DNA from: a virus
Strand: one strand, 5' to 3'
DNA length: 64,000 bases
Virus record (IMG/VR): IMGVR_UViG_3300029060_000343
Positions 2,567-60,726 of this stretch are shown piece by piece (position 1 is the first letter of the stretch; each line of letters starts with the position of its first letter). A model generated the notes under the pieces. That model did not search any database. It was not told the origin of the DNA and saw only the letters and a list, made by a program, of their open reading frames with translations. Position numbers and translations under genes: made by a program.

Positions 2567-2649
2567 AAAGTATTCTCCTTTCTATCTTTTGTTTGATACC
2601 ATTATTATGACATAAAAACATGGAAGAAAGATTTTTCTGCACAGAAAAA

Positions 2650-2672
2650 CCGTGACAAACGCCACGGTTTTT
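2650..2672 (-). terminator. intrinsic terminator (CCGTGGCGTTTGTCACGG + U-run) after the macro-domain gene
   Basis: GC hairpin plus T/A run; readable on both strands. Confidence 0.6.
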
Positions 2673-2754
2673 CATCTTTAAGAGAAGGATACCACGTCCA
2701 TAGGTAACGTAACAAACGAATTTGTTTGAGTTAATCAATCTAAAATCCTGGTTC

Positions 2755-3213
2755 CTACCATAAATTTCGTTTTTCTTCCCATTTATAACATACGGTAATA
2801 TTCAGATCATCAATATCTCCGAATAATTCCTGTATAAAACTCCTTACGACTTCCCAGTCCATCCGATCCAGACCACAGCCAATTTTAGGCATTGCGATAG
2901 ATTTTATACCGTATGTAATGACAATATTGCGAAGCTCTTTTAATGCCGTCCGCATGGTCTTTTCCGAAGGCTTCATATAATATTTCGCCTTCGTCACCAG
3001 ATTTAGAACACGTGAGGTTACAATGCAGTATCCTTTACCGTTCCATACATTTGACCTGTAGTTTTTCTGCAGTTCCTGCTTCGTATTAAATCTTTTATTG
3101 AATTCAACAGCGATACCTTTTCCGCAAGCAAAATCAGCGGATATACACTGTACAAACCATACGTCAGGATCATCGATATCAAATAAATCCGCGTATTTTT
3201 CTATATATTGCAA
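2755..3213 (-). CDS. macro domain protein (ADP-ribose binding/hydrolase-like)
   Basis: Macro-domain-like glycine-rich segment (ISADFACGKGIAVEF); TTG start with GGGGGAG RBS; downstream hairpin terminator at 2650-2672. Confidence 0.6.
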   Translation of the reverse strand: MQYIEKYADLFDIDDPDVWFVQCISADFACGKGIAVEFNKRFNTKQELQKNYRSNVWNGKGYCIVTSRVLNLVTKAKYYMKPSEKTMRTALKELRNIVITYGIKSIAMPKIGCGLDRMDWEVVRSFIQELFGDIDDLNITVCYKWEEKRNLW

Positions 3214-3342
3214 GTGCTCTCCCCCTTTCTGTTTATAAAATTAATATGTCAGAATTTCTGTGCAGGAATTTGCTCACATCATTATTTTATGCTATAGTAA
3301 CTATAGAAAACAGAATACAGCAAAAATAAAAAAGGATAAGAA

Positions 3343-3645
3343 ATGGCAGAAATTAAAAAATTCCCTAACCAGTCAAGATATGAAGAACTGGCTATAATGG
3401 AAAAAGAAGAATTTGATAAGGAAATCGAGAAATACGAAGATCATCCGAAACTCAAGGATCTGATTGAAAAATACAGAGAAACATCTTCCGAAGGATATGC
3501 GAATCTGGCAAGGACCTCCATGAGAGGTGCTGCTGAATCCATCGAGGAAGCGAAACAAAATACAACGTTTTTAAAAGGGCTTGCGCTGGCAGCCGAATCC
3601 GGAAGACTTCAGGATATAATCAGCAAAATCATTTCGGAATTATAA
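3343..3645 (+). CDS. hypothetical protein (100 aa)
   Basis: RBS AAAAGGATAAGAA-ATG; own TATAGT-like -10 element; followed by a bidirectional hairpin terminator. Confidence 0.55.
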   Translation: MAEIKKFPNQSRYEELAIMEKEEFDKEIEKYEDHPKLKDLIEKYRETSSEGYANLARTSMRGAAESIEEAKQNTTFLKGLALAAESGRLQDIISKIISEL

Positions 3646-3649
3646 GAAA

Positions 3650-3683
3650 AACGCCTTGCCGGAAAAACCGGAAGGCGTTATTT
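3650..3683. terminator. bidirectional hairpin terminator between convergent genes
   Basis: CGCCTTGCCGG-AAAAA-CCGGAAGGCG flanked by A and T runs. Confidence 0.55.
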
Positions 3684-4031
3684 TTATGCGTTTTTGGATT
3701 TCTCCTGAGACTCTGCGTAGAGCTCATTAAAGAAATCATCCACATCCTGCATGAACTCAAGTTTTTCACTGTCGTTATGCAGAAAATTCTTGATGATTTT
3801 CAAACCTGTTTCACGTTCCATCCGGGACACAACTCCGACCACTTTACTTGAATACTTAACAGCTTCCCCTAACTTACTCTTACGGGCAAGTTCTCTATCG
3901 GGACGAGAATTAATTCTCTCATAAGTCATCAGATCCTCCGATGCCTTACCAAGTGCCTTAACGAGTTCGAAAGCTAATCTCGGCTGAGTCATTGTTGCCT
4001 TTAACAGGTTCGTTTCGTTTAAATTATTCAT
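3684..4031 (-). CDS. hypothetical protein (116 aa; start revised to MNNLNETN...)
   Basis: Strong AAGGAGG RBS 9 nt upstream of an internal ATG at 4029-4031. The N-terminal extension in the ORF track (to 4232) starts at a weak TTG with no RBS and runs through hairpin-rich sequence. Confidence 0.5.
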   Translation of the reverse strand: MNNLNETNLLKATMTQPRLAFELVKALGKASEDLMTYERINSRPDRELARKSKLGEAVKYSSKVVGVVSRMERETGLKIIKNFLHNDSEKLEFMQDVDDFFNELYAESQEKSKNA

Positions 4032-6949: not shown

Positions 6950-7822
6950 TCAATGTTCGTTATCTTGAATAATAGCAGGCTTAATGCGTTCTGTTGTCGC
7001 TTGCTGCTCTCGTTTGGTTTCCTCGACAACGGCATTAATATGCTTCATAAAATCAGAAGGTTCATCAATTTCTATATTATTTTCGTTTTCGGAGCATTCC
7101 TTTTCAAAATCTTTTATCGCTGCGTTGATTTCGCGTATTTCGAATTCATTGATTGAATTTTTACTGACTTCTTCGCGAAGTCGATCAATTAATTCGTGAG
7201 CTTTTTGTCTGATGTTTTGGTCATCGTTATATGCTAAAATATCAATGTGATAATTTCCAAACATTTCTCTTTTTGTTTTTAAGTCAAATTTTTTAAATTT
7301 GGCACGCAAGCTAACATCTTTGCTATTATCCTTAACCAAGACATCAAGATCTTTTTCTCGGCAATAACTTACAGCTTCTTTTCTTATCTCTTCGTATCGG
7401 CTATGAACAAGAAGATCAAGGTCATTGTCCCGACTATGACATAAAACAGCCCTTTGCACATCCTCATCATCGGAATTGACAAGTATATCCAAGTCTTTAT
7501 CACGACCATATCTGGCAACAGCTATATCGACAAATGGATCTTCATCATGTACCAAAATATCCAAATCTTTATCCCGTCCATATTCAGCGACAGTTATTCT
7601 AATCATCGGTTCTTCATCATGTACCAAAATATCCAAATCTTTATCCCGTCCATGTTTAGCAATGGCTATTTTAACGTAGGGTTCTTCACTATGTATCAGG
7701 ATATCCAAATCTTTATCATTTCCTAATTCTGCAAGGCTTCGTTTTATGTGCAAAGGAGCATTTAATAATTTCAAATCTTCTTTGACCTGTGGCGTATTTT
7801 CTTGCGTGTTTTCTGTTTTCAT
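6950..7822 (-). CDS. LRV (leucine-rich repeat variant)-repeat protein
   Basis: At least 8 tandem ~24-aa repeats (DKDLDILVHDEDPxVRxAVAxYGR); start set at the ATG after the GGGAGG RBS; produces a ~72-bp DNA tandem repeat. Confidence 0.6.
   Translation of the reverse strand: MKTENTQENTPQVKEDLKLLNAPLHIKRSLAELGNDKDLDILIHSEEPYVKIAIAKHGRDKDLDILVHDEEPMIRITVAEYGRDKDLDILVHDEDPFVDIAVARYGRDKDLDILVNSDDEDVQRAVLCHSRDNDLDLLVHSRYEEIRKEAVSYCREKDLDVLVKDNSKDVSLRAKFKKFDLKTKREMFGNYHIDILAYNDDQNIRQKAHELIDRLREEVSKNSINEFEIREINAAIKDFEKECSENENNIEIDEPSDFMKHINAVVEETKREQQATTERIKPAIIQDNEH
7440..7760. repeat. ~72-bp tandem DNA repeats (≥4 units) encoding LRV protein repeats
   Basis: ATCATGTACCAAAATATCCAAATCTTTATCCCGTCCAT... 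repeated. Confidence 0.6.
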
Positions 7823-7933
7823 AATTTTTCCTCCCAATAAAGTATTTTATGGTTAATTTATTCTGACATTATTATGAAGGAAAATAGACTTATAAAAATA
7901 TAAAAAAGAGTCACATTCCTGCGGTTCTAAATA

Positions 7934-9340
7934 TCAATGTTCTTCTCCCGGATAATTTTTGGATTTAGTTTGTTTATCCAACAAAGCTTGTTGTTCTCTT
8001 TTAGTTTTTTCTACTACAGAATCAATATGATCCAGGAAACTTTCGTAGTCCCCATTTTCTCTTGTTTGCAAGCCAATTTTTATTTTTTCCATTTGATTGT
8101 AATCAAATTTTGGGTTTGCATAAATAGACGCATCAATGCCATCCTCTAAACCCCATCTTATTTGAAGCATTTGCTCAGGATTAAAATCGGCGTTAGCATA
8201 CATAGAAACATCAATACCTGCCTCCAGGCCATATCTTATCTGCTGCATTTGTTCAGCATTAAATTCAGGTTTGGCATAGATAGAAATGTCAACATCTGTC
8301 TCTAAACCCTGTCTAATTTCCGTCATTTGTGTCCACTCGAATTCAGGCTTGGCATAGATGGAAACATCGAGTTTGGATTCCAGACCTTCTCTTATCTGTT
8401 CCATTTGGGTGCTATCAAATCTTGGATTTGCATAAATAGATACATCAATTTCATTTTCTAGTCCATATCTAATTTGTCGCATTTGACGGGCATTAAATTC
8501 AGGTTTGACATAAATAGAAACATCAATACCTGCCTCCAAACCTTGTCTTATTTCATGCATTTGTTCCCCATTAAATTCCGGACTTGCATAAACGGAAATA
8601 TCAACATCGTTTTTCAGTCCCAATCTTATTTCCTGCATTTGATTGGCGTTAAATAATTCTTTATTAATTTTGTAAGTAAGTAGTTTTTTAACTATCGCAT
8701 TTTCTCGAATAGTTTCATCTTGATCATTAATTAAAATATCCAAGTCTTTATTGCGACCTTTGTGTATTACACCTAACTTAACGCCTCTATCTGAATCATG
8801 TACAAGGATGTCAAGATCCTTGTCCCGGCCACACGCAGCGACCCACGTCCTAACGCCAGCATCCGAATCATGAACCAGAATATCCAAATCCTTACTGCGC
8901 CCTTTGGCGGCAACTACCATTCTAATATCTCTATCCGGATCATGGACAAGTATATCCAGATCTTCTTCTTTTCCTTTTTCGATTAAGGCGATTTTTTCAT
9001 TGATCGACATATCATTGCAATTCATAGTATTTTCTTGTTTTTTGATTTTTAAATTTTCTCTTATTTGCTTCATTTGAATCCAATCAAATTCGGGGTTAGC
9101 ATAAATAGAAACGTCGATGTTTTCTTTAAGCCCTTCTCTTATTTCTTCCATTTGTCCTTCATTGAATACCAGGTTGGCGTAGGCAGAGACATCGAGACCA
9201 TCTTCCAGGCCCCATCTTATTTGACGCATTTGTCCCCAACTAAATTCAGGTTTGGCATAAATGGAGATATCGATACCAGACTCCAATCCACTTCTTATCT
9301 CGTTTCTTTGAGCAATATTAAACTTTTCACGGTAAGTCAT
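7934..9340 (-). CDS. repeat protein (about ten ~34-aa repeats plus central LRV repeats)
   Basis: Repeats of the form SIYANPEFxxxQMxQIRxGLExxxDVS; central DLDILVHDxD LRV-like units. Confidence 0.55.
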   Translation of the reverse strand: MTYREKFNIAQRNEIRSGLESGIDISIYAKPEFSWGQMRQIRWGLEDGLDVSAYANLVFNEGQMEEIREGLKENIDVSIYANPEFDWIQMKQIRENLKIKKQENTMNCNDMSINEKIALIEKGKEEDLDILVHDPDRDIRMVVAAKGRSKDLDILVHDSDAGVRTWVAACGRDKDLDILVHDSDRGVKLGVIHKGRNKDLDILINDQDETIRENAIVKKLLTYKINKELFNANQMQEIRLGLKNDVDISVYASPEFNGEQMHEIRQGLEAGIDVSIYVKPEFNARQMRQIRYGLENEIDVSIYANPRFDSTQMEQIREGLESKLDVSIYAKPEFEWTQMTEIRQGLETDVDISIYAKPEFNAEQMQQIRYGLEAGIDVSMYANADFNPEQMLQIRWGLEDGIDASIYANPKFDYNQMEKIKIGLQTRENGDYESFLDHIDSVVEKTKREQQALLDKQTKSKNYPGEEH

Positions 9341-10021: not shown

Positions 10022-10029
10022 AATCGTTC

Positions 10030-10266
10030 TTTCGGATTTTTCGCTCCATACCTGCCCGGTGTAAGTAATATCCTACTGTTTATTATTTGCCTAGCTAATC
10101 TTCTGGACAAAAGGAATCTTCCAGGTGAACTACCCCGACTTATAGAAGTCGGAACTTCCTAATTCAACCACCGCTGCATTGATCACGATACACGCAATCA
10201 ACGTCTTACGCAATGTCCACAGGCGTATGAGTTCGGGCTATTCCGTCCCTACTATAAATATTTGAT
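10030..10266 (-). ncRNA. putative omega-RNA (right-end RNA) scaffold region of the tnpB element
   Basis: Position immediately 3' of tnpB, as in characterised IS605 TnpB systems; no direct sequence evidence. Confidence 0.25.
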
Positions 10267-11400
10267 TTATGCTGCTGTCAGTGTCCGCAGGCCTTCCTGC
10301 AGGATGTTGATGGCGGCATTCCTGTCCCTGCCCATCGTCAGACCACAGTCACATTTCATGGTGCGGACCCTGAGATCCTTCATTTCCGGATGCAGGGAAC
10401 CGCAGCAGTGACAGATCTGGGATGACGGAAACCATTTATCGACCTTGATGAGATACTTGTTTCTGTCGGCAAGCTTGTATTCGAGCATGGACAGAAACAT
10501 GCCATATCCGTTATCCAGGGTAGCTTTACCGTTCCCGAAACCTTTGTTTGCCATGGCACGCATATTTAAGGATTCCACGCATACGACATCATACCGGTTG
10601 GCTATCCCGGTAGAGATCTTATGCAGGTTATCCAGACGCTGATTGGCAATGTGTTTGTGGATCCTGTTGATCTTACGGAGCTGCTTTATGTAATTACTGG
10701 ATTTCACTTCATTCTTACGGGAACCCTGCATGCGTGACAGCCGGCGCTGCGCCCTGGCAAGCTTCCTGCTGCTCTCGCGGTAGTATTTATGATTCGTGCC
10801 AACGTTGCCGTTGTTGTCCACGTACAGCCCATCAGAGGCATAATCCAGTCCGATGGCGTTGGTTTTATCGGCAGTATAGGTATTTACAGGAGTTTCGAAT
10901 TCGAACAGGACGGAGACATAATACTTCCCGTCGGATTCCTGGGATACCGTGGCAGATTTGATGTTCCAGTCGTCTCCGGGCATACGATGGATGACAGCTT
11001 TTACTTTACCGGCCTTAGGCAGCCTGATAAAGCCGCCGTCCACGATAGCAACAGTACCCTTCTGGTTGTTGGTGGTATAAGACCTGCGGCTTCGCTTTGC
11101 GGACTTGAACTTAGGAAAACCAGTATTCTTCTTGTGCGACTTACTGAAACAGTTACGGAAGGCAGCCTGCAAATCCAACTGCTTGTTAGCAAGCGCAAGG
11201 CTGTCCACTTCTTTAAGATATGGATGATCCTTCTTGTATTTGGCAGGAGTGATAGCAGGGAATTTACCGGTAGTTTCATAGCCCTCAATCTTATCGGACA
11301 GCATGAGATTATAAACCTTCCGGCAGCATCCAAAGGTTTTTGCAAACAGGGCGCGTTGTTCAGTCGTAGGGTAGATCCGGTATCTGTAAGCATGGTTCAT
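10267..11400 (-). CDS. tnpB: TnpB (IS200/IS605 family OrfB, RuvC-like RNA-guided nuclease)
   Basis: Conserved OrfB N-terminus (YRYRIYPT), RuvC-I (GLDYA), RuvC-II (VESL), CHCCG...CDCG zinc finger, and RuvC-III (RDRNAAINI). Confidence 0.85.
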   Translation of the reverse strand: MNHAYRYRIYPTTEQRALFAKTFGCCRKVYNLMLSDKIEGYETTGKFPAITPAKYKKDHPYLKEVDSLALANKQLDLQAAFRNCFSKSHKKNTGFPKFKSAKRSRRSYTTNNQKGTVAIVDGGFIRLPKAGKVKAVIHRMPGDDWNIKSATVSQESDGKYYVSVLFEFETPVNTYTADKTNAIGLDYASDGLYVDNNGNVGTNHKYYRESSRKLARAQRRLSRMQGSRKNEVKSSNYIKQLRKINRIHKHIANQRLDNLHKISTGIANRYDVVCVESLNMRAMANKGFGNGKATLDNGYGMFLSMLEYKLADRNKYLIKVDKWFPSSQICHCCGSLHPEMKDLRVRTMKCDCGLTMGRDRNAAINILQEGLRTLTAA

Positions 11401-13930: not shown

Positions 13931-14261
13931 AATTTTCTCCTATTCTGTTATATATAACTATTATGAAAGATATTTTTTTAAATAACAAAATTTCCCGGAG
14001 CGGGGACTCCGGGAAACGCATCAAAGATAAAAGGGGAATCAGATCTGTTTTCATCTGATAATACTATTATAACAGCTTTGAAATTTATTGCAAATTTCTG
14101 CACAGAAATTATTACAAAGAAAAATAAACAAAAATAACAATACAAAACAGTATGTATTTAACAAAACAACTGTTCCATATTGTATTAATTTTAAAAATAT
14201 GATATTTTCGTTATGGCAAAAGTAGATAGATGTTTTTGTTTACGAAAGAGAGGCGAAAATC

Positions 14262-31009: not shown

Positions 31010-31120
31010 TGTCCCCTTTCATAAAAAATACGGTAAAACAAAGGGGTAAGATGTAAACTCCTATATTCGTTCCATTATTATTATGAAAGATTATTTTTGA
31101 TAACGGGAAATTCTGCATAG

Positions 31121-31150
31121 AAATACCCGTGGAAGAATCCACGGGTATCT
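31121..31150 (-). terminator. intrinsic terminator after the flotillin-like gene
   Basis: ATACCCGTGGAAGAATCCACGGGTAT hairpin. Confidence 0.55.
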
Positions 31151-32825: not shown

Positions 32826-33012
32826 TCCTGACCGCTCTGCACAGTCTAAAAACTGGCAGGTTCCAGGTACATGACAGCATCACTTGACAATTCCTGCAAC
32901 AGATCCGCTTTCTGACCGTAAAAATCAGAAACCAGATTTTTTTATGCAGAACAGTGTTTGTTATAGCTGCCGTACCTTAACTGGAATTTCGTCGCAAACA
33001 CTCCGATGATCG
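32826..33012. repeat. solo copy (~185 bp, ~85% identical) of the right end of the 58.7-60.5 kb IS element (MITE-like remnant or standalone omega-RNA locus)
   Basis: Direct alignment of 32832-33010 with 58748-58930 (CTCTGCACAGTCTAAA(A/G)ACTGGCAGGTTCC...TTTTTTATGCA(G/A)AACAGTGTTTGTTATAGCTGCCGTACCT...). Confidence 0.6.
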
Positions 33013-40316: not shown

Positions 40317-40320
40317 ATAG

Positions 40321-40404: not shown

Positions 40405-40478
40405 AGCCTGTGACAAGATTTGAACTTGCAACCCTCTACTTACGAGATAGACGCTCTGCCAATTAGAGCTACACAGGC
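40405..40478 (-). tRNA. tRNA-Thr(CGU)
   Basis: Loop CUCGUAA; T-arm CAAGUUCAAAUCUUG. Confidence 0.7.
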
Positions 40479-40487
40479 ATTTTACAG

Positions 40488-40559
40488 TGCTCCCATGGCG
40501 ACTCGAACGCCAACTACAGAGTTCGTAGCCCTGCCGTCTATCCATTAGCGTATGAGAGC
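40488..40559 (-). tRNA. tRNA-Arg(ACG)
   Basis: Loop CUACGAA; T-arm GGCGUUCGAGUCGCC. Confidence 0.7.
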
Positions 40560-40563
40560 ATAG

Positions 40564-40634
40564 CAGGCGGTAACCGAATCGAACGGGTGTCTCACGGCTC
40601 AGAACCGCACGGTTTACCTCTAACCTAACCGCCT
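40564..40634 (-). tRNA. tRNA-Gln(CUG)
   Basis: Loop UUCUGAG; T-loop UUCGAUU. Confidence 0.6.
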
Positions 40635-40636
40635 AT

Positions 40637-40709
40637 AAGCCGCAGAAGGGACTCGAACCCTTAATCCCCTGATTACAAAGCAGGTGCATTACCATTGTGC
40701 TACAGCGGC
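40637..40709 (-). tRNA. tRNA-Thr(UGU)
   Basis: Loop UUUGUAA; T-arm AGGGUUCGAGUCCCU. Confidence 0.65.
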
Positions 40710-40723
40710 ATATTTAATTTCAG

Positions 40724-40807
40724 GGAGACCAGTGGGGCTCGAACCCACGTAGGAATTGCTTCCGCAGAGCCACAATCTGCTGCCTAACCAACTCGGCCAC
40801 AGCCTCC
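40724..40807 (-). tRNA. tRNA-His(GUG) with G-1:C73 and an unusual extra arm
   Basis: Loop UUGUGGC; 8-bp acceptor including G-1; extra arm GGAAGCAAUUCC. Confidence 0.5.
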
Positions 40808-40811
40808 ATAG

Positions 40812-40883
40812 CTGGAATGGCGGGACTTGAACCCACAACCTACCGGTTAACAGCCGGTCGCTCTACCATTGAGCTACAAACCA
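40812..40883 (-). tRNA. tRNA-Asn(GUU)-like copy with weakened acceptor stem (possible pseudo-tRNA)
   Basis: Body nearly identical to the tRNA-Asn at 41637..41709; two U·U mismatches in the acceptor. Confidence 0.4.
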
Positions 40884-40900
40884 ATACTATATTATCTAAA

Positions 40901-40974
40901 TGGGGCGAGTGAGAATCGAACTCACGACACACGGCTTATAAGGCCGCTGCTCTTGACCCCTGAGCTACCACCCC
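40901..40974 (-). tRNA. tRNA-Ile(UAU)
   Basis: Loop CUUAUAA; T-arm GUGAGUUCGAUUCUCAC. Confidence 0.6.
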
Positions 40975-41060
40975 TTATGAAATAAGGTTCGGTATAGATA
41001 TTCGTCTCATAGTCTTGTTTCTCCTTTATATTTGTTATACTCTTTCTACAGGAAAGAAAA

Positions 41061-41134
41061 TGTACCAGAAGGGATTCGAACCCATAGAAAACCGGATTTG
41101 AGCCGGCCCCGTCTGCCAGTTGCGGCACTGATGC
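41061..41134 (-). tRNA. tRNA with anticodon CAA (Leu codon UUG), class I length with Leu-type D-arm
   Basis: Loop CUCAAAU; D-arm CCGCAACUGGCAGACGG; short variable region. Confidence 0.5.
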
Positions 41135-41140
41135 ATACAG

Positions 41141-41213
41141 TCGGAATGACAGGTCTCGAACCTGCAGCCTCATGATCCCAAATCACGCGCGCTACCAATT
41201 GCGCCACATCCCG
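41141..41213 (-). tRNA. tRNA-Pro(UGG)
   Basis: 5' CGGGAUG; loop UUUGGGA; T-arm GCAGGUUCGAGACCUGU. Confidence 0.7.
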
Positions 41214-41219
41214 ATACAG

Positions 41220-41293
41220 TGCCCATGAGTGGTTTCGAACCACCAACCTCTGCCATCTGAAGACAGTTCGTCTGCCAATTGCGCCACATGGAC
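41220..41293 (-). tRNA. tRNA with anticodon CAG (Leu codon CUG), class I length
   Basis: Loop UUCAGAU; T-arm GGUGGUUCGAAACCACU; 5-nt variable region. Confidence 0.5.
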
Positions 41294-41300
41294 ATCACAG

Positions 41301-41378
41301 TACCTCGAATGGGAGTCGAACCCATAAACAATCACAGAGTCCTTAGCTCTGCCGCTTTGCCAATTTGCGTACCGAGGC
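41301..41378 (-). tRNA. tRNA with anticodon AAG (Leu codon CUU), short variable region
   Basis: Loop CUAAGGA; Leu-type D-arm CGCAAAUUGGCAAAGCG; T-arm UGGGUUCGACUCCCA. Confidence 0.5.
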
Positions 41379-41392
41379 ATATTTATTTTAAG

Positions 41393-41476
41393 TGGGCGAA
41401 GAAGGACTTGAACCTTCAGAAGCCGAAGCCAACTGTTTTACAGACAGTACCGCTGCCAATTACGGGATATTCGCCC
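41393..41476 (-). tRNA. tRNA-Tyr(GUA), class II
   Basis: Loop CUGUAAA; long variable arm; T-arm GAAGGUUCAAGUCCUUC. Confidence 0.7.
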
Positions 41477-41481
41477 AAAAG

Positions 41482-41569
41482 TCGGCAGGGTGAGAGTCGA
41501 ACTCACAATGTTTACCACGAGGGTCACAGTTTTACAGACTGCTTGCTTCAGCCTTTTGCATACCTGCCG
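41482..41569 (-). tRNA. tRNA-Tyr(GUA), second copy with divergent sequence, class II
   Basis: Loop CUGUAAA; perfect acceptor CGGCAGG/CCUGCCG; long variable arm. Confidence 0.65.
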
Positions 41570-41636
41570 TTAATAATATTCAGTTCCCATATAATAATAG
41601 TCTGGCATATCAGTCATCTCCTTTACATTTCTTAAG

Positions 41637-41709
41637 CTCTCACAGCAGGACTTGAACCTGCAACATCCCGGTTAACAGCCGGACGCTCTACCGATTGAGC
41701 TATGCGAGA
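41637..41709 (-). tRNA. tRNA-Asn(GUU)
   Basis: Loop CUGUUAA; T-arm GCAGGUUCAAGUCCUGC. Confidence 0.7.
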
Positions 41710-41713
41710 ATAG

Positions 41714-41786
41714 AGTGCGTGAACGGATTCGAACCGTCCCTTTCTGCTTGGAAGGCAGATGTGCTATCCGCTGACACTACACACAC
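41714..41786 (-). tRNA. tRNA-Gly(UCC)
   Basis: Loop CUUCCAA; T-arm GACGGUUCGAAUCCGUU. Confidence 0.65.
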
Positions 41787-41791
41787 ATAAG

Positions 41792-41867
41792 CGACTCCAA
41801 CGGGATTTGAACCCGTGTTATTCCTGCGTGACAGGCAGGTGCCATAAACCAGCTAGGCGATGGAGCC
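41792..41867 (-). tRNA. tRNA-Asp(GUC)
   Basis: Loop CUGUCAC; T-arm CACGGGUUCAAAUCCCGU. Confidence 0.65.
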
Positions 41868-41871
41868 ATAA

Positions 41872-41943
41872 TGCCTCGTTTCGGTTACGATCCGATCCTC
41901 TGGAGCTTCAATCCAGCGCTTCTACCAAGTTAGCTTACGAGGC
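41872..41943 (-). tRNA. tRNA-Phe(GAA), noncanonical T-loop
   Basis: Perfect acceptor GCCUCGU/ACGAGGC; loop UUGAAGC; T-loop AUCGUAA. Confidence 0.6.
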
Positions 41944-42050
41944 TCGGTAAAGTCAGTATCGTCTTTACCGCCATAAAATCGTTTATCCATATTTTTTCAA
42001 TGTCCTTTCGTATATTGTATAAATCCTGAGTGCCTGGTTCAGAATTTAAG

Positions 42051-42123
42051 AGCAGATGACGGAACTCGAATCCGCATTTCTGACTTGGCAAGCCAGTGTA
42101 TTAGCCAGCTATACGACATCTGC
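42051..42123 (-). tRNA. tRNA-Gly(GCC)
   Basis: Perfect acceptor GCAGAUG/CAUCUGC; loop UUGCCAA; T-arm GCGGAUUCGAGUUCCGU. Confidence 0.7.
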
Positions 42124-42190
42124 ATGTGGGACAAACGGAGTGCCTGGTTCCATAAGTCCCTGTTTTGTTGTATTACGGATATTTCCGTAG

Positions 42191-42263
42191 CGACCGATGC
42201 GGGATTCGAACCCACGTCTCGGGAGTGAAATTCCCGTGACCTCGTCCTCTAGTCGAATCGGCC
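42191..42263 (-). tRNA. tRNA-Glu(UUC)
   Basis: Perfect acceptor GGCCGAU/AUCGGUC; loop AUUUCAC; T-arm GUGGGUUCGAAUCCCGC. Confidence 0.65.
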
Positions 42264-42270
42264 AAATCAA

Positions 42271-42347
42271 TGGAGCATATGAGAATCGAACCCATCTGTT
42301 TTTCCTGTTTGCAAAACAGGCGACCACCCCTTGCAGTCCCATACCCC
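42271..42347 (-). tRNA. tRNA-Ala(UGC) with G3:U70
   Basis: 5' GGGGUAU with G3·U70 wobble; loop UUUGCAA; T-arm AUGGGUUCGAUUCUCAU. Confidence 0.6.
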
Positions 42348-42416
42348 ATATAATTAAAAAGACCACTAAACTAAGACAATTTCTTAATCCAGTGGTCATG
42401 ATTTCATATTTCCAAT

Positions 42417-43629: not shown

Positions 43630-44598
43630 ATGGAAAAGAAAAATGAACCGAAATTATATCATATCGAAGAAATGGAAGAATATCTCAATTCAATATTACC
43701 GGATTCTTCGAACTCTTTTAAATACCTTTATCTTAAAAAGCAGATTATGGCACATTTTTCTTTAGCAAGAAATGGCTATACTAATCGCATTTCCTCTTAT
43801 ACTGAAGTCAAAAGAGAAGCTTTAGATAAGCTTTGTTGTAAAATAGCTGAAGAATATGGAACAACTGAAAAAACATGGGCTCAACTGGCGAAGGAAAATG
43901 ACATTAATATCTCGACAGTTCAACATTATATTAAAAAATACGACCAAGAGCATCCAGGCTATTTTTCTCAAAAACCTAATAGAATAAATGAACATGAAAT
44001 TATTGAAATGTATTTTGAGAAAAAATATACAGCCAATGAAATAGCGGAAAAATTAGGGTGTTCCGCTTCTACCGTGTGGCGCGCAATCCGCAGTTATAGA
44101 AATATACATAAGGAGTTGGAGACGGACTGTAGTTTAACAAGAAATTTTTTAAACAAAGAAGATATAGAGATTGCCTGTGCATATCTCAATACGAACAGCA
44201 CTTATAAAGAAGTGGCTGCAAAGTATTCATGTAGTATTTCGACTGTCCAGTATTGCATTAAAAAATACAAGGCCGCTACGGCGAAAATGGAAGAAATTTC
44301 TCCCACTGTAGATAATAGTAATTTTGTGCGCTTGTATTTTGTAAAAAATGTTTCCATCGAGCAATTGACGGCCTATGGAAAATATTCCAGGGAAGATATA
44401 GAAAATGGTATAAAAGAATATTTGAGCGAATTATGTAAAAAATATACGGCTGATGAATTGATTGCGGAGCAGATTATTGAGGATTACATTAATGGTGAAA
44501 AAGCACACTCTTTAGCTAAAAAATACCATAAAGCAACAACAACCGTAACGGAGATCATAGAATTATATAAAAATTCCACACAAAAAGAACCGGGATAA
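43630..44598 (+). CDS. multi-HTH DNA-binding protein (4-5 tandem IS30/sigma-r4-like helix-turn-helix units)
   Basis: Repeats ISTVQHYIKKY, CSASTVWRAIRSY, CSISTVQYCIKKYK and TTTVTEIIELYK, each preceded by a helix; AAGAGGGATAAT-ATG RBS. Confidence 0.55.
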   Translation: MEKKNEPKLYHIEEMEEYLNSILPDSSNSFKYLYLKKQIMAHFSLARNGYTNRISSYTEVKREALDKLCCKIAEEYGTTEKTWAQLAKENDINISTVQHYIKKYDQEHPGYFSQKPNRINEHEIIEMYFEKKYTANEIAEKLGCSASTVWRAIRSYRNIHKELETDCSLTRNFLNKEDIEIACAYLNTNSTYKEVAAKYSCSISTVQYCIKKYKAATAKMEEISPTVDNSNFVRLYFVKNVSIEQLTAYGKYSREDIENGIKEYLSELCKKYTADELIAEQIIEDYINGEKAHSLAKKYHKATTTVTEIIELYKNSTQKEPG

Positions 44599-49023: not shown

Positions 49024-49719
49024 TTAATTTTTTAATTCCTCGTAATGTTCCGTTAATTCCTCACTCAGCGCTTTTCCACTCTCACCGAATAACATTTTTA
49101 ACTGGAACGGAAGTCCGATCTCTTTGTCGGAAGCATTTGTTATAGCTTTTTTAATTTCATCCATGCGTTTGCTGTATTTGCAACCGGCCTTTTCTTCAGC
49201 AATCTTCACCAGTTTTTCCAGGAGATCGTCAGTGGGCGTGTTTTCCGGTGGACTCATCATCGGTGTCTCCTCTTCTTTTGCTGCAGCCGGTTCGGGATCT
49301 TCATTTTTCAACTCTTTTACACCTTTCGGTTCAGCTGTTTTTCTCGGAGCTCTCGGCTTCGATACTTTCTTATCGGAATTTTTTGCGGCAGCAGCCATGG
49401 ATAAAAGCTCGATCTCCTGTTCTTTCGCGAAATCCGCCATATCCCTGGGCACGGACGAAATGGTACATACACGGGACTCTTTCCGCTCCTTTAACATCCC
49501 GAGAACAAACAACAATGTATCTCTTTTCTCTGGAAGCGCCGTAGAAAGCTCCAGTTTATCATCCGGAATAGGCAGCTGGCGAAGCTTGTTATATTCACTA
49601 ATCCGCAGTTCAGTTCCAAGGACTGTGAACTTATCGAACATAGACGGGATCTTTTTGTTTTCTTTGATCAGATCTGATAATTTCTGGATTTCATCGCTCC
49701 AGATAAGTAATGTTGACAT
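49024..49719 (-). CDS. hypothetical protein with Lys/Pro/Glu-rich central region
   Basis: ORF track; terminator at 49000-49019. Confidence 0.5.
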   Translation of the reverse strand: MSTLLIWSDEIQKLSDLIKENKKIPSMFDKFTVLGTELRISEYNKLRQLPIPDDKLELSTALPEKRDTLLFVLGMLKERKESRVCTISSVPRDMADFAKEQEIELLSMAAAAKNSDKKVSKPRAPRKTAEPKGVKELKNEDPEPAAAKEEETPMMSPPENTPTDDLLEKLVKIAEEKAGCKYSKRMDEIKKAITNASDKEIGLPFQLKMLFGESGKALSEELTEHYEELKN

Positions 49720-49919
49720 ACGTTACACCTCCTTCTTTTAATATTATTATGACAGAATTTTTATAGAGTGGAAATTTCTGCACAAAAAGAACGAATAATA
49801 CATTCGCTCTTCATATATCAGGTTATGGATGAAAATTTAAAGGCCTCGTTAAACCTCTGTCGCCTATGCCAATTTTTCTTTCCAAGTTACAAATCACCCT
49901 GATATACATATGAAATCGC

Positions 49920-50757: not shown

Positions 50758-51009
50758 CTATGCCGCACATATTCCGACATACCCACAACCATGTATAACT
50801 TTATATCTGTCATCTTTCTCAAAACAGAAATCCAGACTTTCTGCGGGACATTCTTCCGGATCAATCCATCCGGTCCGGTTTGCTCGCATGATCGTCCCAT
50901 CTTCGCATCGCCAGATCACATCTCCTTTTTCGAAAGTTGTATCCGTGCTGCTTTTCGTCACCTTATAAACAACATTTTTCTCCATTACCGTTTCTCCTCT
51001 GCGGTCCAC
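50758..51009 (-). CDS. hypothetical protein (83 aa)
   Basis: ORF track. Confidence 0.45.
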   Translation of the reverse strand: MDRRGETVMEKNVVYKVTKSSTDTTFEKGDVIWRCEDGTIMRANRTGWIDPEECPAESLDFCFEKDDRYKVIHGCGYVGICAA

Positions 51010-51206
51010 GGCACAACGATACCTAATAATTTCAAATAAGCGTACACTTCTTTGTATCCACCTACCCCGAACATGCGGATCTTACTTAAGTTTCCGTAGT
51101 CGATAATATCGCCCACGGTTTTGATTCCGGCACGACGAAGAACGCTATAAGTTCGGTGGGAAAACTTCTCCGATCCAAGTAGCATATACAAAGGCGTGGC
51201 CACCAA
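50985..51206 (-). CDS. RNA polymerase alpha C-terminal-domain-like (HhH) small protein; TTG start or frameshifted continuation of 51145..51417
   Basis: FSHRTYSVLRRAGIKTVGDIIDYGNLSKIRMFGVGGYKEVYAYL matches the alpha-CTD helix-hairpin-helix pattern (SVRSxNCLKxAGIxTVGDL...NFGKKSLxEI). Confidence 0.45.
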   Translation of the reverse strand: MVATPLYMLLGSEKFSHRTYSVLRRAGIKTVGDIIDYGNLSKIRMFGVGGYKEVYAYLKLLGIVVPWTAEEKR

Positions 51207-51417
51207 TGCTCCTGTCCGCGGTGGTGATCATGATCGGCGTGTCTTTCCTCATCTTTTTGATCCGCAGCATTTTCGATGCCGCATCGTAAAGTTCCTGCAA
51301 TGTTAAAATATGCGGCTCTACGGGCGAACTATTTTTATCCATAACGAATCTCCTTCTAATACTATATATGAATGATTTTACGGGAAACGAAAATACCTGC
51401 ACAGAAAAAGCCGACAA
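51145..51417 (-). CDS. hypothetical protein (90 aa); overlaps and may be the frameshifted N-terminal part of the alpha-CTD-like ORF
   Basis: 62-bp overlap in a different frame with 50985..51206. Confidence 0.35.
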   Translation of the reverse strand: MSAFSVQVFSFPVKSFIYSIRRRFVMDKNSSPVEPHILTLQELYDAASKMLRIKKMRKDTPIMITTADRSIGGHAFVYATWIGEVFPPNL

Positions 51418-51738: not shown

Positions 51739-52037
51739 GGATCATTGGCGCTTACATGAAGCAGGTCTTCTGCGATCTTATGCAGGCATTCAGTATCGAC
51801 TTTTGCTACTACGGCGGCGACACCATTGATTCTAGGTCTGCCGCGGTATACGCACCCACCGGGCCAGCCGTCTTCGAATTCACTTTGGGGAACCGTTCTA
51901 TATTCAATTTTATTTTCTTCCATAAAAGGAATCAGTTTATTTAAAATTACTCCCGGAACAACGGTAACTTCTTCTTTTTCAGAATATACAATTTGTGGAT
52001 TATACATTTCTGCCTCCTTATTCATTTGATGAATCAA
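51711..52037 (-). CDS. hypothetical protein (108 aa), paralog of 51433..51738
   Basis: Tandem duplicate. Confidence 0.5.
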   Translation of the reverse strand: MIHQMNKEAEMYNPQIVYSEKEEVTVVPGVILNKLIPFMEENKIEYRTVPQSEFEDGWPGGCVYRGRPRINGVAAVVAKVDTECLHKIAEDLLHVSANDPCFGGRKVM

Positions 52038-52063
52038 TTATAATACAAATATTAACGACAGTC

Positions 52064-52080
52064 AAAATTCTGCACAGAAA
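52064..52080 (-). promoter_or_regulatory. TTTCTGCACAGAAA inverted-repeat box (TTCTG-CA-CAGAA), one of ~8-10 intergenic copies
   Basis: Other copies at 2633-2650, 3252-3270 (variant), 14092-14110, 49771-49790, 51391-51410, 60490-60505 and 31108-31127 (variant). Confidence 0.4.
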
Positions 52081-54039: not shown

Positions 54040-55092
54040 CTAATTAATAACTTTATGGACAACAGCTGCCTGACATTCCGTTCCCGATACATATACCGGT
54101 GGAATCCAGTGCAGGATCAGTTTTCTTTCACCGTTCCTCGATCCGGTCCAGTAATGATGCCAGTGTGCCCTCCTTGTGTGTGCCGGTAAAGAACGTTTTA
54201 CACAAATGTTCAGTTCGGATGTTTGCCCTTTACAATTATCTGAAGATTTCTTTTGTTTCTTCTGCGAACGAATTTCTGATCCGTACCGATAACCACATTC
54301 CCATTGACGGATTTCAGAAAACCTATTTTTGATACGTCCACTGGGATGATATGTATTTTTCGTAACTGAAGATTCCTGTATCTCTGCATTGTCTGCGCAC
54401 AGATATAATAAAGCATTCAACATATAGAAACAGAATTCCGTCCAATCCACGTTTCGGTCTGATTCGTCGCATGAAAAATCATTTTTGTCGAAAATGAAAA
54501 TTCCATCTTCATTATCGTTTGGAACCAGTGCGGCTTTGCCAAACATAACCCTGCCATCTTCCTTTACGCGTTCCGTGTACAAAAGATATCCATTTTCTTT
54601 CCTGATTATATTTATGAATGCTCCGTGGAAATTTTTCCGGAAAATGCCATCCTCAGAAAATTCCAGATAAAATGTCTGATACGGCAGCCGGTCCAGTATT
54701 CTTACAGGTAATTTGATTTCTTCCGAATCTGCCAAAGCAAGCTCAAGTTCCGAATCAAACTTATATACCTGTTTATTTGCGGCCCATTTATTCGGCATTA
54801 GATACGAAGAAAATAATTCTGCGGCTAACGCTCTGTCTTCTTCTGGATCTTCTGGTATCTCGCCATTTCCAGTCATCATTTTGTACATTTGAGAACGGCC
54901 TGATAATAAAATATCATTGATGTATTTGAATTTTCCGTTATAAGACGGATTCATGAAATCAGTGTCGTACCAGATAAACAAAAGGACATCGTCGATATTT
55001 AAAAGTGTCTGTTTGATCGCCCTGGTCCATTTATTATTATAAGGATGACTGTTTAAATCCATTATTTTTGCAAAATATAATGGTGTATACAT
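54040..55092 (-). CDS. hypothetical protein (350 aa)
   Basis: ORF track. Confidence 0.5.
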   Translation of the reverse strand: MYTPLYFAKIMDLNSHPYNNKWTRAIKQTLLNIDDVLLFIWYDTDFMNPSYNGKFKYINDILLSGRSQMYKMMTGNGEIPEDPEEDRALAAELFSSYLMPNKWAANKQVYKFDSELELALADSEEIKLPVRILDRLPYQTFYLEFSEDGIFRKNFHGAFINIIRKENGYLLYTERVKEDGRVMFGKAALVPNDNEDGIFIFDKNDFSCDESDRNVDWTEFCFYMLNALLYLCADNAEIQESSVTKNTYHPSGRIKNRFSEIRQWECGYRYGSEIRSQKKQKKSSDNCKGQTSELNICVKRSLPAHTRRAHWHHYWTGSRNGERKLILHWIPPVYVSGTECQAAVVHKVIN

Positions 55093-58221: not shown

Positions 58222-58324
58222 AATTTTCTCCTTCTTTCTTTGTTTTTATTAATATGAAAGATTTATGTCCATAAAAGAAAACTTCCAGCCGAAGCCGGAA
58301 GTTATATATTTTATTGTTTCCGGC

Positions 58325-58504
58325 TTATAAACCGAAAATTTTATCAACTTTTACCAGTCCTGCGTTTGCTACAGCCCATGCCATTACAACATAGATCATT
58401 GCGACATTTTTGCCGCAATACGTGTTAAGAAATGCTATAATTAACACGCTGATAACAAAACTTGCAACCATAATGAAAATTAAAGAAATATTTTTCTGCA
58501 TATT
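58325..58504 (-). CDS. small membrane protein (start revised to MQKNISLIF...)
   Basis: AGGAGGAATCAAAT-ATG RBS; two TM segments. Confidence 0.4.
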   Translation of the reverse strand, partial: NMQKNISLIFIMVASFVISVLIIAFLNTYCGKNVAMIYVVMAWAVANAGLVKVDKIFGL

Positions 58505-58741
58505 TGATTCCTCCTGTTTTAAGGAGCTCCCTGTTGCTCCAATTATCTTTGATAACATTAATATGCAGGAAAATATATTTCTAATTCCAAAGCTATCCGA
58601 AATACTTCAGCACCTTGCAACCCTCTTTTGAAAAACTGATATAAGCGTATCTGCAGAATCCAATGGAAGGAACATTTGCGACATTTTCTATCATATTCTC
58701 GTGCAAATGGCCATGAAAATGGTACACAGGCTGTCTGTTCA

Positions 58742-58975
58742 GTAGATACCATCTGACAGCTCTGCACAGTCTAAAGACTGGCAGGTTCCTGGTATATAGC
58801 AGCATCACTTAACGATTCTTACAACGGATCCGGTTTCTGATTTTTATGGTCAGGAAGCGGATCTTTTTTATGCAAAACAGTGTTTGTTATAGCTGCCGTA
58901 CCTAAATGGAATTTCGCTGCAAACGCTCCGATGAGCGCTTAACGCAGCCGGATCCTGTCGAACCCGTTTGTATGA
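58742..58975 (-). ncRNA. putative omega-RNA scaffold region 3' of the tnpB-like gene
   Basis: By position; an ~85%-identical solo copy of this segment sits at 32826-33012. Confidence 0.25.
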
Positions 58976-60442
58976 TTAACAGTGACATTTATGGTATTCG
59001 TAACTTCGCAATCCGAAGCTAGAAGGATATTTCTTATTCTCTGCAAGGAGCGCGTTCATGCAGGCATCATGTGTTATCAGGAACATGGGGAAGGTGTCGA
59101 TACATTTCTGTCTGTCGGCGGCCGTGCCGGTGTCGTTACTGTTCTTTAGCAGGAACGCCGAATACAGATCTCTCTGTATGTAGTGGCCGCCAACGAAACT
59201 TCCCCGGCAAGAAAGCTTCTTTCGGACGTAGTCATCCGTTACATGGTTGTACTGACTGGCGCGGAAGTTTACGGTATCGATCTTAATTAACTCCCCGCCG
59301 CCGGAAGCGAGCCGGCTTTCCAGAATCTTTAGGAACGCTGCCGGTGCGTGGTTGCCTATGGATTTTCCGAACCGCTTCCTGCTCCGGAACCGGCCATCGG
59401 CTTTCTTCGTGGCAGACTTCGATCTCCGTGCAAGACCATGGAAAAACATCTTTTCCACGTACGCGGTATCTGCCTTCGAGGCAATTTCATTCGCAAGCCG
59501 GTGGTGGCCGGTATTTATCGCATCGGCATGCCGGCGTTCCATGGACTTCTTGCGGAACTGAAGCTTCCTGTAGTGCTTCGAACGAATCCACTTCCTTGCA
59601 CCCTTGCGGACAGTGCCGTCCGGCAGATAATTATCCGGATTCGTGATGCGTCTGCTCCGGTCCATGGCTCTCTGAGTCCGCCTGATTTGCGCAGAATGAT
59701 CTTTTGCATCGGAACTGAGTACCGTCAGTTTACAGGAATCCTTGGTCACGATAGCCGCGGTAGAGATCCCGATATCCAGTCCGGCGGTTCCATGACAGAC
59801 CGGATGCTTTACCGGGGGCTTTCCTTCCAGAACCAGCTGCAAGTAGTAGTGGTATTTCGTACCCACGGGCTTCCTCTGGATACGGCAGTACTTTACACGG
59901 GATTTCAGAGCTTTCCGGTCATAATCCGTCCGGATCTGCGGCTGGATCACCTGCCCGCGCCAATAAAGCCGGCCGTCTTTGAACCGCATGCCGGAAGTAT
60001 TTTTCTTACCTTCCATGCTTTCGAATTCATCGTATTTCCTGAAATGAATACATTTCCCGTTATCAAACAGATACTTCTCCACGGACCGCCATACGGAAGA
60101 AGCGATCTTCTGGGCTACATCAGAGTCAATGGATTTCTTGTATCTGTGCTGCTGTACAGCAACATACGTATGCAGCTGGTATTCACTGAGTCCATAACCT
60201 CGGCGGATGTCAGCAAGCTCCTGATTGATGCGGTTCTTATCAACTTTCGATAGACCAGACTCCTTCCTCGCAGCCAGATGATCTCGATACTCCGGATCCT
60301 GTATTAACTTCCGGAGTTGCTTCCGGCAGTGCCGCACAAGGACGTTGTAGATCTGCTGTCCACACCAGAAAGTATGAGAAAGCCACCGGTCCTGCTCGAG
60401 AGAAGTATTCAGTTTTAATGTCAAACCGAATGATTCTGTCAT
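58976..60442 (-). CDS. tnpB: TnpB-like RuvC-fold protein (IS605/IS1341 family) with degenerate zinc finger
   Basis: RuvC-I (GLDIGIS), RuvC-II region (AYVEKMF) and RuvC-III-like (QRDLYSAFLLKN); the usual CxxC...CxxC module keeps only one Cys. Confidence 0.65.
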   Translation of the reverse strand: MTESFGLTLKLNTSLEQDRWLSHTFWCGQQIYNVLVRHCRKQLRKLIQDPEYRDHLAARKESGLSKVDKNRINQELADIRRGYGLSEYQLHTYVAVQQHRYKKSIDSDVAQKIASSVWRSVEKYLFDNGKCIHFRKYDEFESMEGKKNTSGMRFKDGRLYWRGQVIQPQIRTDYDRKALKSRVKYCRIQRKPVGTKYHYYLQLVLEGKPPVKHPVCHGTAGLDIGISTAAIVTKDSCKLTVLSSDAKDHSAQIRRTQRAMDRSRRITNPDNYLPDGTVRKGARKWIRSKHYRKLQFRKKSMERRHADAINTGHHRLANEIASKADTAYVEKMFFHGLARRSKSATKKADGRFRSRKRFGKSIGNHAPAAFLKILESRLASGGGELIKIDTVNFRASQYNHVTDDYVRKKLSCRGSFVGGHYIQRDLYSAFLLKNSNDTGTAADRQKCIDTFPMFLITHDACMNALLAENKKYPSSFGLRSYEYHKCHC

Positions 60443-60457
60443 AAATACTCCTTATAT

Positions 60458-60475
60458 AGTTATTATGACAGAATT
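60458..60475 (-). promoter_or_regulatory. conserved intergenic motif copy (AGTTATTATGACAGAATT) directly upstream of the tnpB-like gene, followed by a TTTCTGCACAGAAA box
   Basis: Lies inside the inferred IS left end. Confidence 0.45.
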
Positions 60476-60726
60476 TGAGTTCCCTGCAGATTTCTGCACA
60501 GAAAGACGCATTCCTCCTCACGGTCTGAAGACAGGAGGCTTCCTGCTATGGTATTTGTGAATGAGTGTCCGTTATGAATAGCGCACGAAATTGCCCGGTA
60601 CATCCCGGAATCTCCCGTTTACGAACCTCAAAACGCTTTTCTTCCTCGGAAAACATGACTTTTTTCGCTGTATCATTATGCATGATTTTTCTTCTTAACA
60701 ATCTGTCCAAAAACATAATTTCTCTC

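Follow-up and report, generated by a model that had tools for sequence, protein, structure and literature searches.

The question considered here is what role is served by a short, near-palindromic sequence that recurs ahead of genes in a stretch of 64,000 nucleotides (nt) of viral DNA (IMG/VR record IMGVR_UViG_3300029060_000343; this whole stretch is referred to as the window). The sequence, TTTCTGTGCAGAAATTT, is 12–17 base pairs (bp) in length and will be referred to as the box. A sequence-only reading of this DNA had listed about 8–10 intergenic copies of it, had interpreted them as operators for a dimeric regulator, and had also considered an origin from the ends of an IS605-like insertion sequence (IS). 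The recurrence of the box is non-random, and it is a phage-specific upstream promoter box with a geometry like that of the Mor and C sites of phage Mu. The explanation that we favor, to which we give about an even chance of being correct, is that one class of promoters has the box as its upstream element and that a trans-acting protein activates transcription from it.

In the direction of transcription, the 12-mer form of the box reads TTCTGTGCAGAA. Its dyad, TTCTG-TG-CAGAA, is made up of two 5-bp inverted repeats with a gap of 2 bp, and the arms together with their flanks extend towards AATTTCTG-TG-CAGAAATT. The core CTGTGCAG is invariant and contains both G and C. A nearly invariant T is present on one side of the 12-mer and ATTT on the other, and the block that is conserved across 36 families of box promoters is T-TTCTGTGCAGAA-ATTT; where a terminator is absent, a tendency towards AA(T) is seen upstream of this block. 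When the window was searched with TTCTGCACAGAA, allowing up to two mismatches, 26 matches were found, as compared with 6.6 ± 2.7 (maximum 14) in 100 shuffled sequences. All eight of the sites listed earlier are present with every coordinate right, and a ninth copy (2220–2231, inverted and with one mismatch), which was not in that list, was also found. Four of these copies are exact (2635–2646, 14096–14107, 52068–52079, and 60492–60503), three others from the list have one mismatch (3256–3267, 31111–31122, and 49776–49787), and one has two (51395–51406). Every one of the eight copies that have no more than one mismatch is located within the non-coding 15.7% of the window (binomial p ~4e-7), the "coding" flag on the 31111 copy being due to a spurious call of a 65-amino acid (aa) open reading frame (ORF). 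The copy with two mismatches (51395) is likewise non-coding. The copies and their surroundings are as follows, where distances are from the end of the box to the -10 hexamer.

2635..2646, minus strand: exact box (TTCTGTGCAGAA on this strand), right after a terminator hairpin; CATAAT (2604–2609) at 25 nt; 78-aa ORF 2330–2566.
3256..3267, plus strand: box with one mismatch (TTCTGTGCAGGA) in a divergent region; TATAGT (3293–3298) at 25 nt; weakly ArdA-like gene 3343–3645 (plus strand).
14096..14107, minus strand: exact box; TATAAT (14066–14071) at 24 nt; short non-coding transcript.
31111..31122, minus strand: box with one mismatch (TTCTATGCAGAA), after a terminator hairpin; CATAAT (31080–31085) at 25 nt; HD-domain gene 30401–31009.
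49776..49787, minus strand: box with one mismatch (TTTTGTGCAGAA), after a terminator; TG-extended CATAAT (49746–49751) at 24 nt; 231-aa gene 49024–49719.
51395..51406, minus strand: box with two mismatches (TTCTGTGCAGGT), after a terminator; CATATA (51365–51370) at 24 nt; an operon that in relatives encodes Zn-ribbon and alpha-CTD-like proteins (alpha-CTD, C-terminal domain of the RNA polymerase alpha subunit).
52068..52079, minus strand: exact box, then TTGACT-17-TATAAT (52037–52065); box to -10 distance 25 nt; paralogous 98-aa and 92-aa ORFs.
60492..60503, minus strand: exact box, ~55 nt inside the left end of a mobile TnpB element; CATAAT (60462–60467) at 24 nt; tnpB.
2220..2231, plus strand: ninth copy, flipped relative to its promoter (TTCTGCACACAA towards the gene); CATAAT (2198–2203) at 16 nt; signal-peptidase gene 1685–2176.

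The distance between the box and the -10 hexamer is 24 or 25 nt in all eight of the listed copies, rather than 5–25 nt to a conserved motif, as had been stated before. The same distance applies at 51.39 and 52.06 kb, where the box was thought to replace this motif and where CATATA or TATAAT is found in the expected place. The hexamers behind the eight boxes (CATAAT, TATAAT, TATAGT, or CATATA) are of the (C/T)ATAAT type and are often TG-extended, and the sole box on the plus strand (3256) serves the sole nearby plus-strand gene. In a scan for sigma-70-type promoters with two hexamers, no more than two boxes of the window, viz. 52068 and 49776, were seen to have a full promoter.

This arrangement is also found in relatives of the phage. 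Sister phages (61–91% protein identity) have kept the box at orthologous promoters, and additional box promoters are present in them. The box at 49776 is invariant in its orthologues over this same range of identity, whereas the spacer varies at 10 of 24 positions, and the 51395 promoter has a perfect box together with CATAAT in some relatives. In orthologous promoters, 3 of 84 positions are variable in the box as compared with 25 of 170 in the spacer (Fisher p = 0.009), and this comparison indicates that, relative to the spacer, purifying selection acts on the box. When metagenome contigs were scanned with the pattern box + ATTT + N19-22 + YATAAT, 90 stretches were obtained, nearly all of them from the human gut and several of them sharing a contig (e.g., seven from a 253-kb contig). 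When the pooled set from the window and its relatives was grouped by the variable core of the spacer, 45 families were obtained, and in 32 of these the -10 hexamer is located either at 24 nt, as in 20 families, or at 25 nt, as in the other 12. Across 36 families the positions T0 to T16 are nearly invariant and the spacers are unrelated; the G that completes the TTG of a -35 hexamer (with a spacer of 16–17 nt) is present in 15 of them (~40%). The box is also strictly oriented. Its central TG points towards the promoter and is never flipped, and in 73 of 79 unique sequences with the TG in this orientation the hexamer is at 24–25 nt. In the opposite orientation (19 sequences), the hexamers are scattered over 12–30 nt with no peak, and these sequences represent divergent promoters on the far side of a box. 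In IMG/VR, the box plus -10 pattern gave 20 single matches, one of which (L003; L numbers denote individual loci) was confirmed as a relative. No match was obtained in a megablast comparison of 12 kb with GenBank phages, in a TnpB search of IMG/VR, or in a first genome scan using one protein.

Because the orientation of the TG is fixed and the distance of 24–25 nt is locked in ~32 families, the box is best understood as an element, either activator-type or RNA polymerase-associated, whose action depends upon promoter architecture. If transcription is assumed to start ~7 nt past the -10 hexamer, the box extends from about -48 to -37 with its center at -42.5 or -43.5, and the -35 position, where conservation is weak, is reached by the ATTT flank. 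An element that is locked in phase and orientation, with a weak -35 one turn downstream of it and then a good -10, points to an activator-dependent arrangement, and a free-floating operator would be less constrained in its position. A trans-acting activator is favored here because this arrangement matches that of activator-dependent promoters, the closest described examples of which are from phage Mu. The Mor site of this phage consists of two 5-bp inverted repeats in a 16-bp element centered at -43.5 (PMC4390567), while C recognizes a 16-bp imperfect dyad, also at -43.5, in late promoters that have a -10 and lack a -35 (PMC2582627). Both of these proteins are reported to bind as tetramers and to make contacts with the alpha-CTD, sigma region 4, and the beta flap (preprint, bioRxiv 10.1101/2025.05.02.651988). 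The likeness of the box to the Mor and C sites (Pm, Plys, PI, PP, and Pmom) consists in the dyad of two 5-bp inverted repeats and in a phage-specific class of genes, and probably also in a center at ~-43.5 overlapping the -35 position (for the box, this figure derives from the assumed start) and in promoters with a good -10 and a poor or absent -35 (PMC4390567, PMC2582627). However, the sequence of the box is unrelated to these sites, its repeats are separated by 2 bp rather than by 6, the host here belongs to the Bacillota, and ~40% of the box promoters retain the TTG; binding to the box and activation from it are putative. Further, a Mor/C protein of ~130 aa was not found here, and the similarities seen are limited to local helix-turn-helix (HTH) matches in one protein with four such modules, which is described below.

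In the proposed mechanism, a sequence-specific DNA-binding protein, probably encoded by the phage, would occupy the box and contact RNA polymerase through sigma region 4 and/or the alpha-CTD, thereby activating transcription in the manner of Mor and C or of lambda cI at PRM. The genes preceded by the box would then form a co-regulated set that includes accessory, anti-defence, and host-takeover genes, the resident TnpB transposon, and a small RNA. The lambda cI site OR2 at PRM and the class II sites of CRP/FNR (centered at -41.5) are likewise dimer-type sites one turn upstream of the -35, and from a site of this kind activation of one promoter could go together with repression of another that diverges from it, as might be the case in the 3256 region with its plus- and minus-strand promoters. 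Unlike these systems, the box is not part of a tripartite operator, it is shorter (12–18 bp as compared with 17–22 bp), and genes resembling cI/Cro or CRP/FNR were not seen. The MotA box of phage T4 is also phage-specific, strictly oriented, and at a fixed distance from a host-type -10, and it defines a temporal class of genes. It is centered at -30, where it replaces the -35 hexamer, is not a dyad, and depends upon AsiA, whereas the box described here is a dyad located near -43 (assuming the above start).

Several considerations weigh against the activator explanation. The placement near -43 derives from an assumed start site, and a purely symmetric homodimer leaves the constant orientation of the central TG unexplained. 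A canonical Mor/C, CRP/FNR, or cI-like gene was not found in the window. The loci from the metagenome scan were chosen by a pattern that already contains the spacing, and the unbiased figure is that from non-selected boxes, 18 of 37 of which have a strict (C/T)ATAAT at 24–25 nt; several of the others have CATATT or TAAAAT at this distance, and the remainder are sites in coding sequences or flipped sites. Lastly, many of the promoter families may go back to a single ancestral cassette.

The geometry also bears on the possibility that the box is the operator of a repressor, where a protein bound immediately upstream of the -35 position, and overlapping it, blocks RNA polymerase. Early or accessory genes would in this manner be shut off late in infection, or be kept silent in a carrier state. 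We consider this explanation unlikely. The dyad is of the kind found in classical dimeric repressors, and at two places a box overlaps a core promoter: the other end of the 3256 box is only 7 nt from the CATATTAAT -10 (3240–3248) of the minus-strand Macro-domain gene 2755–3213, and the flipped 2220 copy, 16 nt from its -10, has its center near -34 and overlaps the -35 region. Some variants of the TnpB left end carry two abutting inverted boxes over the -35 region, and the occurrence of the phage in the assembly of a cultured isolate makes a carrier or lysogenic state possible. However, steric occlusion requires neither a position locked one helical turn upstream of the -35 nor a fixed orientation, both of which are seen in ~32 families. 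A symmetric operator should function in either orientation and at variable positions, but 73 of the 79 sequences have the 24–25 nt distance in one orientation and the flipped ones have no preferred distance. Dispersed repressor operators such as LexA boxes and the C1 sites of phage P1 occur at variable positions over the core promoter. The P1 C1 operators otherwise resemble the box in that many sites of ~17 bp are dispersed over a large phage genome ahead of unrelated operons, with a possible carrier state, but the position of the box is fixed. Of the operator for a dimeric regulator proposed earlier, the dyad is real and a regulatory-protein site remains the best reading, whereas the fixed orientation and distance are unlike those of a generic symmetric operator. 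The same activating protein could nevertheless repress from off-distance copies, the candidates being the flipped 2220 copy (16 nt), the opposing 3240 promoter (7 nt), and, as further putative repressed positions, the TnpB left ends with two abutting inverted boxes.

In five of the eight listed copies, the box directly follows an intrinsic-terminator hairpin whose T-tract runs into it. This association brings to mind the PeSLs, which are composite terminator and early-promoter motifs that serve as points of genetic exchange (PMC4122927, PMC2839356). The unit of terminator, box, and promoter could by analogy be a recombination module that shuffles gene cassettes, with regulation being secondary, an explanation that appears to us improbable. 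In T4-type phages, the PeSL cassettes similarly combine a terminator with a conserved promoter motif and flank small variable ORFs in plastic regions (PMC4122927), but a dyad box at -43 is not part of them. The gene content between boxes differs among sister phages, and two blocks of homology between sister genomes start 50–70 nt upstream of a box; the sample of such breakpoints is, however, very small. An identity of 12–17 nt is also short for homologous recombination, and it is left unexplained why the spacing is exact and why, relative to the spacer, the box is under purifying selection. A role in recombination is in any case compatible with the box being a promoter element and does not exclude it.

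The strict spacing and orientation are typical of core promoter elements, and the 17-nt block could be read directly by RNA polymerase as an extended upstream promoter element with no separate factor; the reader could be a sigma-like subunit, modified or encoded by the phage, or an alpha-CTD-like protein. This explanation, which we regard as rather unlikely, receives some support from the ATTT flank, located at the start of the -35 hexamer, and from the relatives, in which (L027, 6809–8017) a box promoter expresses a 151-aa Zn-ribbon protein and a protein of 181 aa that combines a sigma-4-like HTH with an alpha-CTD-like domain. However, a distance of 24–25 nt to the -10 is too great for the -35 element of the sigma-70 family (16–19 nt), the core with its G and C is unlike A/T-rich UP elements, and the sigma-54 pattern (GG-N10-GC) is not present. 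Moreover, at 50758–51342 (minus strand) of the window a deletion has fused residues 1–61 of the Zn-ribbon protein, out of frame, to residues 116–181 of the 181-aa protein. As the N-terminal 115 residues of the alpha-CTD-like protein have thus been lost in the lineage of the window while the boxes are kept intact, this protein is unlikely to be required or to be the box binder. A UP element as such (an A/T-rich tract from -60 to -40 bound by the alpha-CTD) was ruled out by the G and C of the invariant core CTGTGCAG, and a sigma-54 site, a restriction site, parS, and origin iterons were ruled out either by sequence or by the promoter-locked geometry.

The possible derivation of the box from an insertion sequence concerns a mobile element in the window and its solitary end, the relevant parts of which are given below.

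58753..60560, minus strand: TnpB-only element of the IS605 family, ~1.8 kb, with a left-end hairpin, box promoter, tnpB, and an omega-RNA-like right end of ~185 nt; terminus ..CTGTGCAGAGCTGTCAG.
58760..58769, minus strand: CTGTGCAGAG, not a box, 7 nt inside the right end; it is made up of TGCAGAG, which is conserved in the family, and the 3' arm of the final hairpin, CAGTC-TTTA-GACTG.
32828..33012, minus strand: solo right-end copy with no tnpB, 84% identical and ending in the same CTGTGCAGAGCGGTCAG.

The tnpB gene (58976–60442) encodes a divergent TnpB of 488 aa, with an intact RuvC triad (D223, E330, and D425) that is invariant in 15 homologues. The element replaces 397 bp of a metallophosphatase gene, which is intact (238 aa) in sister phages, and an empty site is present in L034 (4700–6000). 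The left end, including the box, is shared by another insertion that is independent of this one and located elsewhere, with differences at 4 of 24 spacer positions, and the box at 60492 is therefore carried by the element. That boxes in general derive from the transposon ends of the IS605 family or imitate them, or that the guide RNA of TnpB targets them, is in our view hardly credible. It is suggested by the presence of CTGTGCAGAG at the right ends of the element and of the solo copy and by the box near the left end. The copies of CTCTGCACAG at 58760 and 32835 were confirmed; they lie only at the right end of the element and of its solo copy, whereas the outer ends in general had been named earlier. 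Since the right end reads ..CAGTCTTTAGACTGTGCAGAGCTGTCAG in five insertions, beyond which the flanks diverge, CTGTGCAGAG located 7 nt inside this common terminus is part of the scaffold and not of the guide. The terminus ..TGCAGAGC(A/T)GTCAG is conserved in bacterial members of this TnpB family, and ..TGCAGAGCAGTCAG ends 10 bacterial relatives (34–53% identity), where it follows a different hairpin and no box is present. No box in promoter geometry was found upstream of tnpB in 80 bacterial relative loci, and in the closest bacterial relatives inspected tnpA lies directly upstream of tnpB. The other boxes have only promoter elements in common with the element. On these comparisons, the resemblance at the right end is attributable to a family-conserved heptamer and a lineage-specific hairpin arm, while the left-end box appears to be a phage-type promoter that has replaced tnpA in a phage-resident lineage and is predicted to drive tnpB in the normal box geometry. 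An IS-end origin of the box, as suggested in the sequence-only reading, was hence ruled out by the family-wide terminus and by the bacterial relatives that lack the box, 60492 being an ordinary box promoter. A TldR-like RNA-guided repressor was also ruled out, as the RuvC triad is intact; further, the flanks after ..GCTGTCAG differ in the five insertions, for which reason the guide is variable and is something other than the box.

Some other features of these elements were noted. Left-end variants in L151 and L194 have two abutting inverted boxes (TTCTGTGCAGAAATCTGCACAGAA) over about -48 to -25 of the tnpB promoter, solo right-end copies of ~185 nt are also present in L029 and L032, and in other strains the second insertion site adjoins a gene for an RNase-A-like toxin. 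The window also contains a second, classical IS605-type TnpB (10022–11400, minus strand; 377 aa, with HTH_OrfB, OrfB_IS605, and zinc-ribbon domains), which has no box associated with it and is followed by ~245 nt of non-coding sequence.

A protein that might bind to the box was sought among roughly 65 ORFs of the window with Pfam, PHROG, and NCBIfam. A Mor/C family protein was not found in these scans, which were confined to the window (the genome of a relative is ~340 kb in size), and the sole HTH protein found is the following one.

43630..44598, plus strand: candidate regulator of 322 aa with four tandem sigma-region-4/Mor-like HTH modules, conserved in all relatives.

The four modules of this protein are homologous and each is ~55 aa in length. 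The Pfam Mor family (PF08765) matches residues 280–319 below the threshold (E = 0.002; 18.6 bits, cut-off 24.9), and the matches to the PHROG "late transcriptional activator" are local and cover single HTH modules only; it is not a member of the Mor/C family. Its predicted structure is mediocre (pLDDT 69, pTM 0.51), a Foldseek search of the PDB with this model gave nothing below E = 0.29, and a sequence search of the PDB gave only a weak YlxM-like match. This protein had been named earlier as a candidate regulator, but a direct link between it and the box was not seen.

The box at 14096 is followed not by a protein-coding gene but by a predicted RNA.

13981..14059, minus strand: predicted small RNA (sRNA) of ~78 nt from the 14096 box promoter, with a 5' hairpin, a single-stranded UUCCCCUUUUAUCUUUGAUGC, and an intrinsic terminator.

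Fifteen unique homologues of this sRNA were identified (in L026, L027, L029, L032, L034, and several loci among L127–L206). They form three subfamilies in which the box-24-TATAAT promoter and the seed UUAUCUUUGAUG are kept and the hairpins differ. Rfam contained no family matching either the sRNA or the omega-RNA-like region, and RNAalifold did not capture covariation in the 5' hairpin, the subfamilies aligning out of register. Genes with promoters of the CATATTAAT type have a conserved leader, CAUCAAAGAAAA..GGAGG, to which the seed (also written UAUCUUUGAUG) is complementary. At a threshold of -19 kcal/mol or below, five targets were predicted as compared with 0.7 expected from shuffled seeds (P ~0.007), the best of these being 43630, 36098, 27661, 53720, and 25381, in the leader and Shine-Dalgarno region. 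The top target is the leader of the four-HTH gene at 43630 (-25.5 kcal/mol), for which complementarity is kept in relatives. The sRNA resembles anti-Shine-Dalgarno small RNAs and the c4 antisense RNA of phage P1.

A speculative combination of these observations, which we think improbable, is that the box is the docking site of the 322-aa four-HTH protein, acting as a single-chain counterpart of the Mor/C tetramer, and that the box-driven sRNA masks the ribosome-binding leaders in the mRNA of this protein and of the CATATTAAT class. The built-in asymmetry of such a chain could, speculatively, explain the strict orientation of a near-palindromic site. If true, the four-HTH protein with feedback by the sRNA would constitute a protein-plus-RNA timing switch in uncultured huge gut phages.

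A second and commoner type of promoter, tttTCTkTCATATTAAT, was also observed. It has no -35 hexamer, is usually located right after a terminator (minus strand), and is often followed by a conserved leader, aTCATCAAAGAAAAnnGGAGG. About 15 sites of this type are present in the window, e.g., 12523, 13446, 16903, 25123, 26410, 28173, 36557, 43455, 46144, 48970, 53993, 55882, and 58248. None of these has a box at -43, and some relatives combine both. A rule that the box never pairs with a -10 of the CATATTAAT type, based on 0 of 15 in the window, was dropped, as in L132, L150, and L165 the box is 24 nt from CATATT.

Its gene features, exact-protein matches to human-gut metagenome contigs, a 91%-identical relative on a 341-kb contig, and a copy in a Clostridium isolate show that the window belongs to a huge phage whose host is among the Clostridia of the gut. 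The isolate is Clostridium sp. AF34-10BH (L046, GCA_003478095.1, contig QUEC01000004.1, 167.7 kb). A close relative of the phage is present in its assembly, where a copy of one gene is 95% identical and has phage neighbors, and this occurrence points to a host and makes a carrier or lysogenic state possible. The genes are nearly all on the minus strand and have Bacillota-type AGGAGG ribosome-binding sites. An array at 38015–42348 (minus strand) contains 35 tRNA genes covering most amino acids, an extent that is typical of very large phages. Most of the ORFs have no family, and those which are recognizable are accessory or anti-defence genes; a likely anti-defence cluster is comprised of the following four.

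28853–29044: AcrIC5 family gene (E = 4e-17).
54040–55092: AcrVA2-like gene.
3343–3645, plus strand: weakly ArdA-like gene.
2755–3213, minus strand: Macro-domain gene.

In kind, the box is an ordinary finding, a regulatory site specific to the phage whose geometry has a precedent in phage Mu. It provides an uncultured clade of huge gut phages with a promoter grammar, with copies in dozens of gut metagenomes and in the assembly of one cultured isolate. The rule box-24/25-(C/T)ATAAT, which requires nothing beyond sequence, would pick out one co-regulated set of anti-defence-like and accessory genes, the sRNA, and a phage-resident TnpB element that seems to have exchanged tnpA for a phage-type promoter, and from this rule gene timing and the regulator are directly testable. 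Other recognizable proteins of the window include an HD-domain protein, a flotillin, an MCP-domain protein, and a cytosine methylase. At 7413–9310, the neighboring ORFs 6950–7837 and 7934–9340, both of which belong to PHROG 20647, contain in-frame tandem repeats whose periods are 72 and 78 nt.

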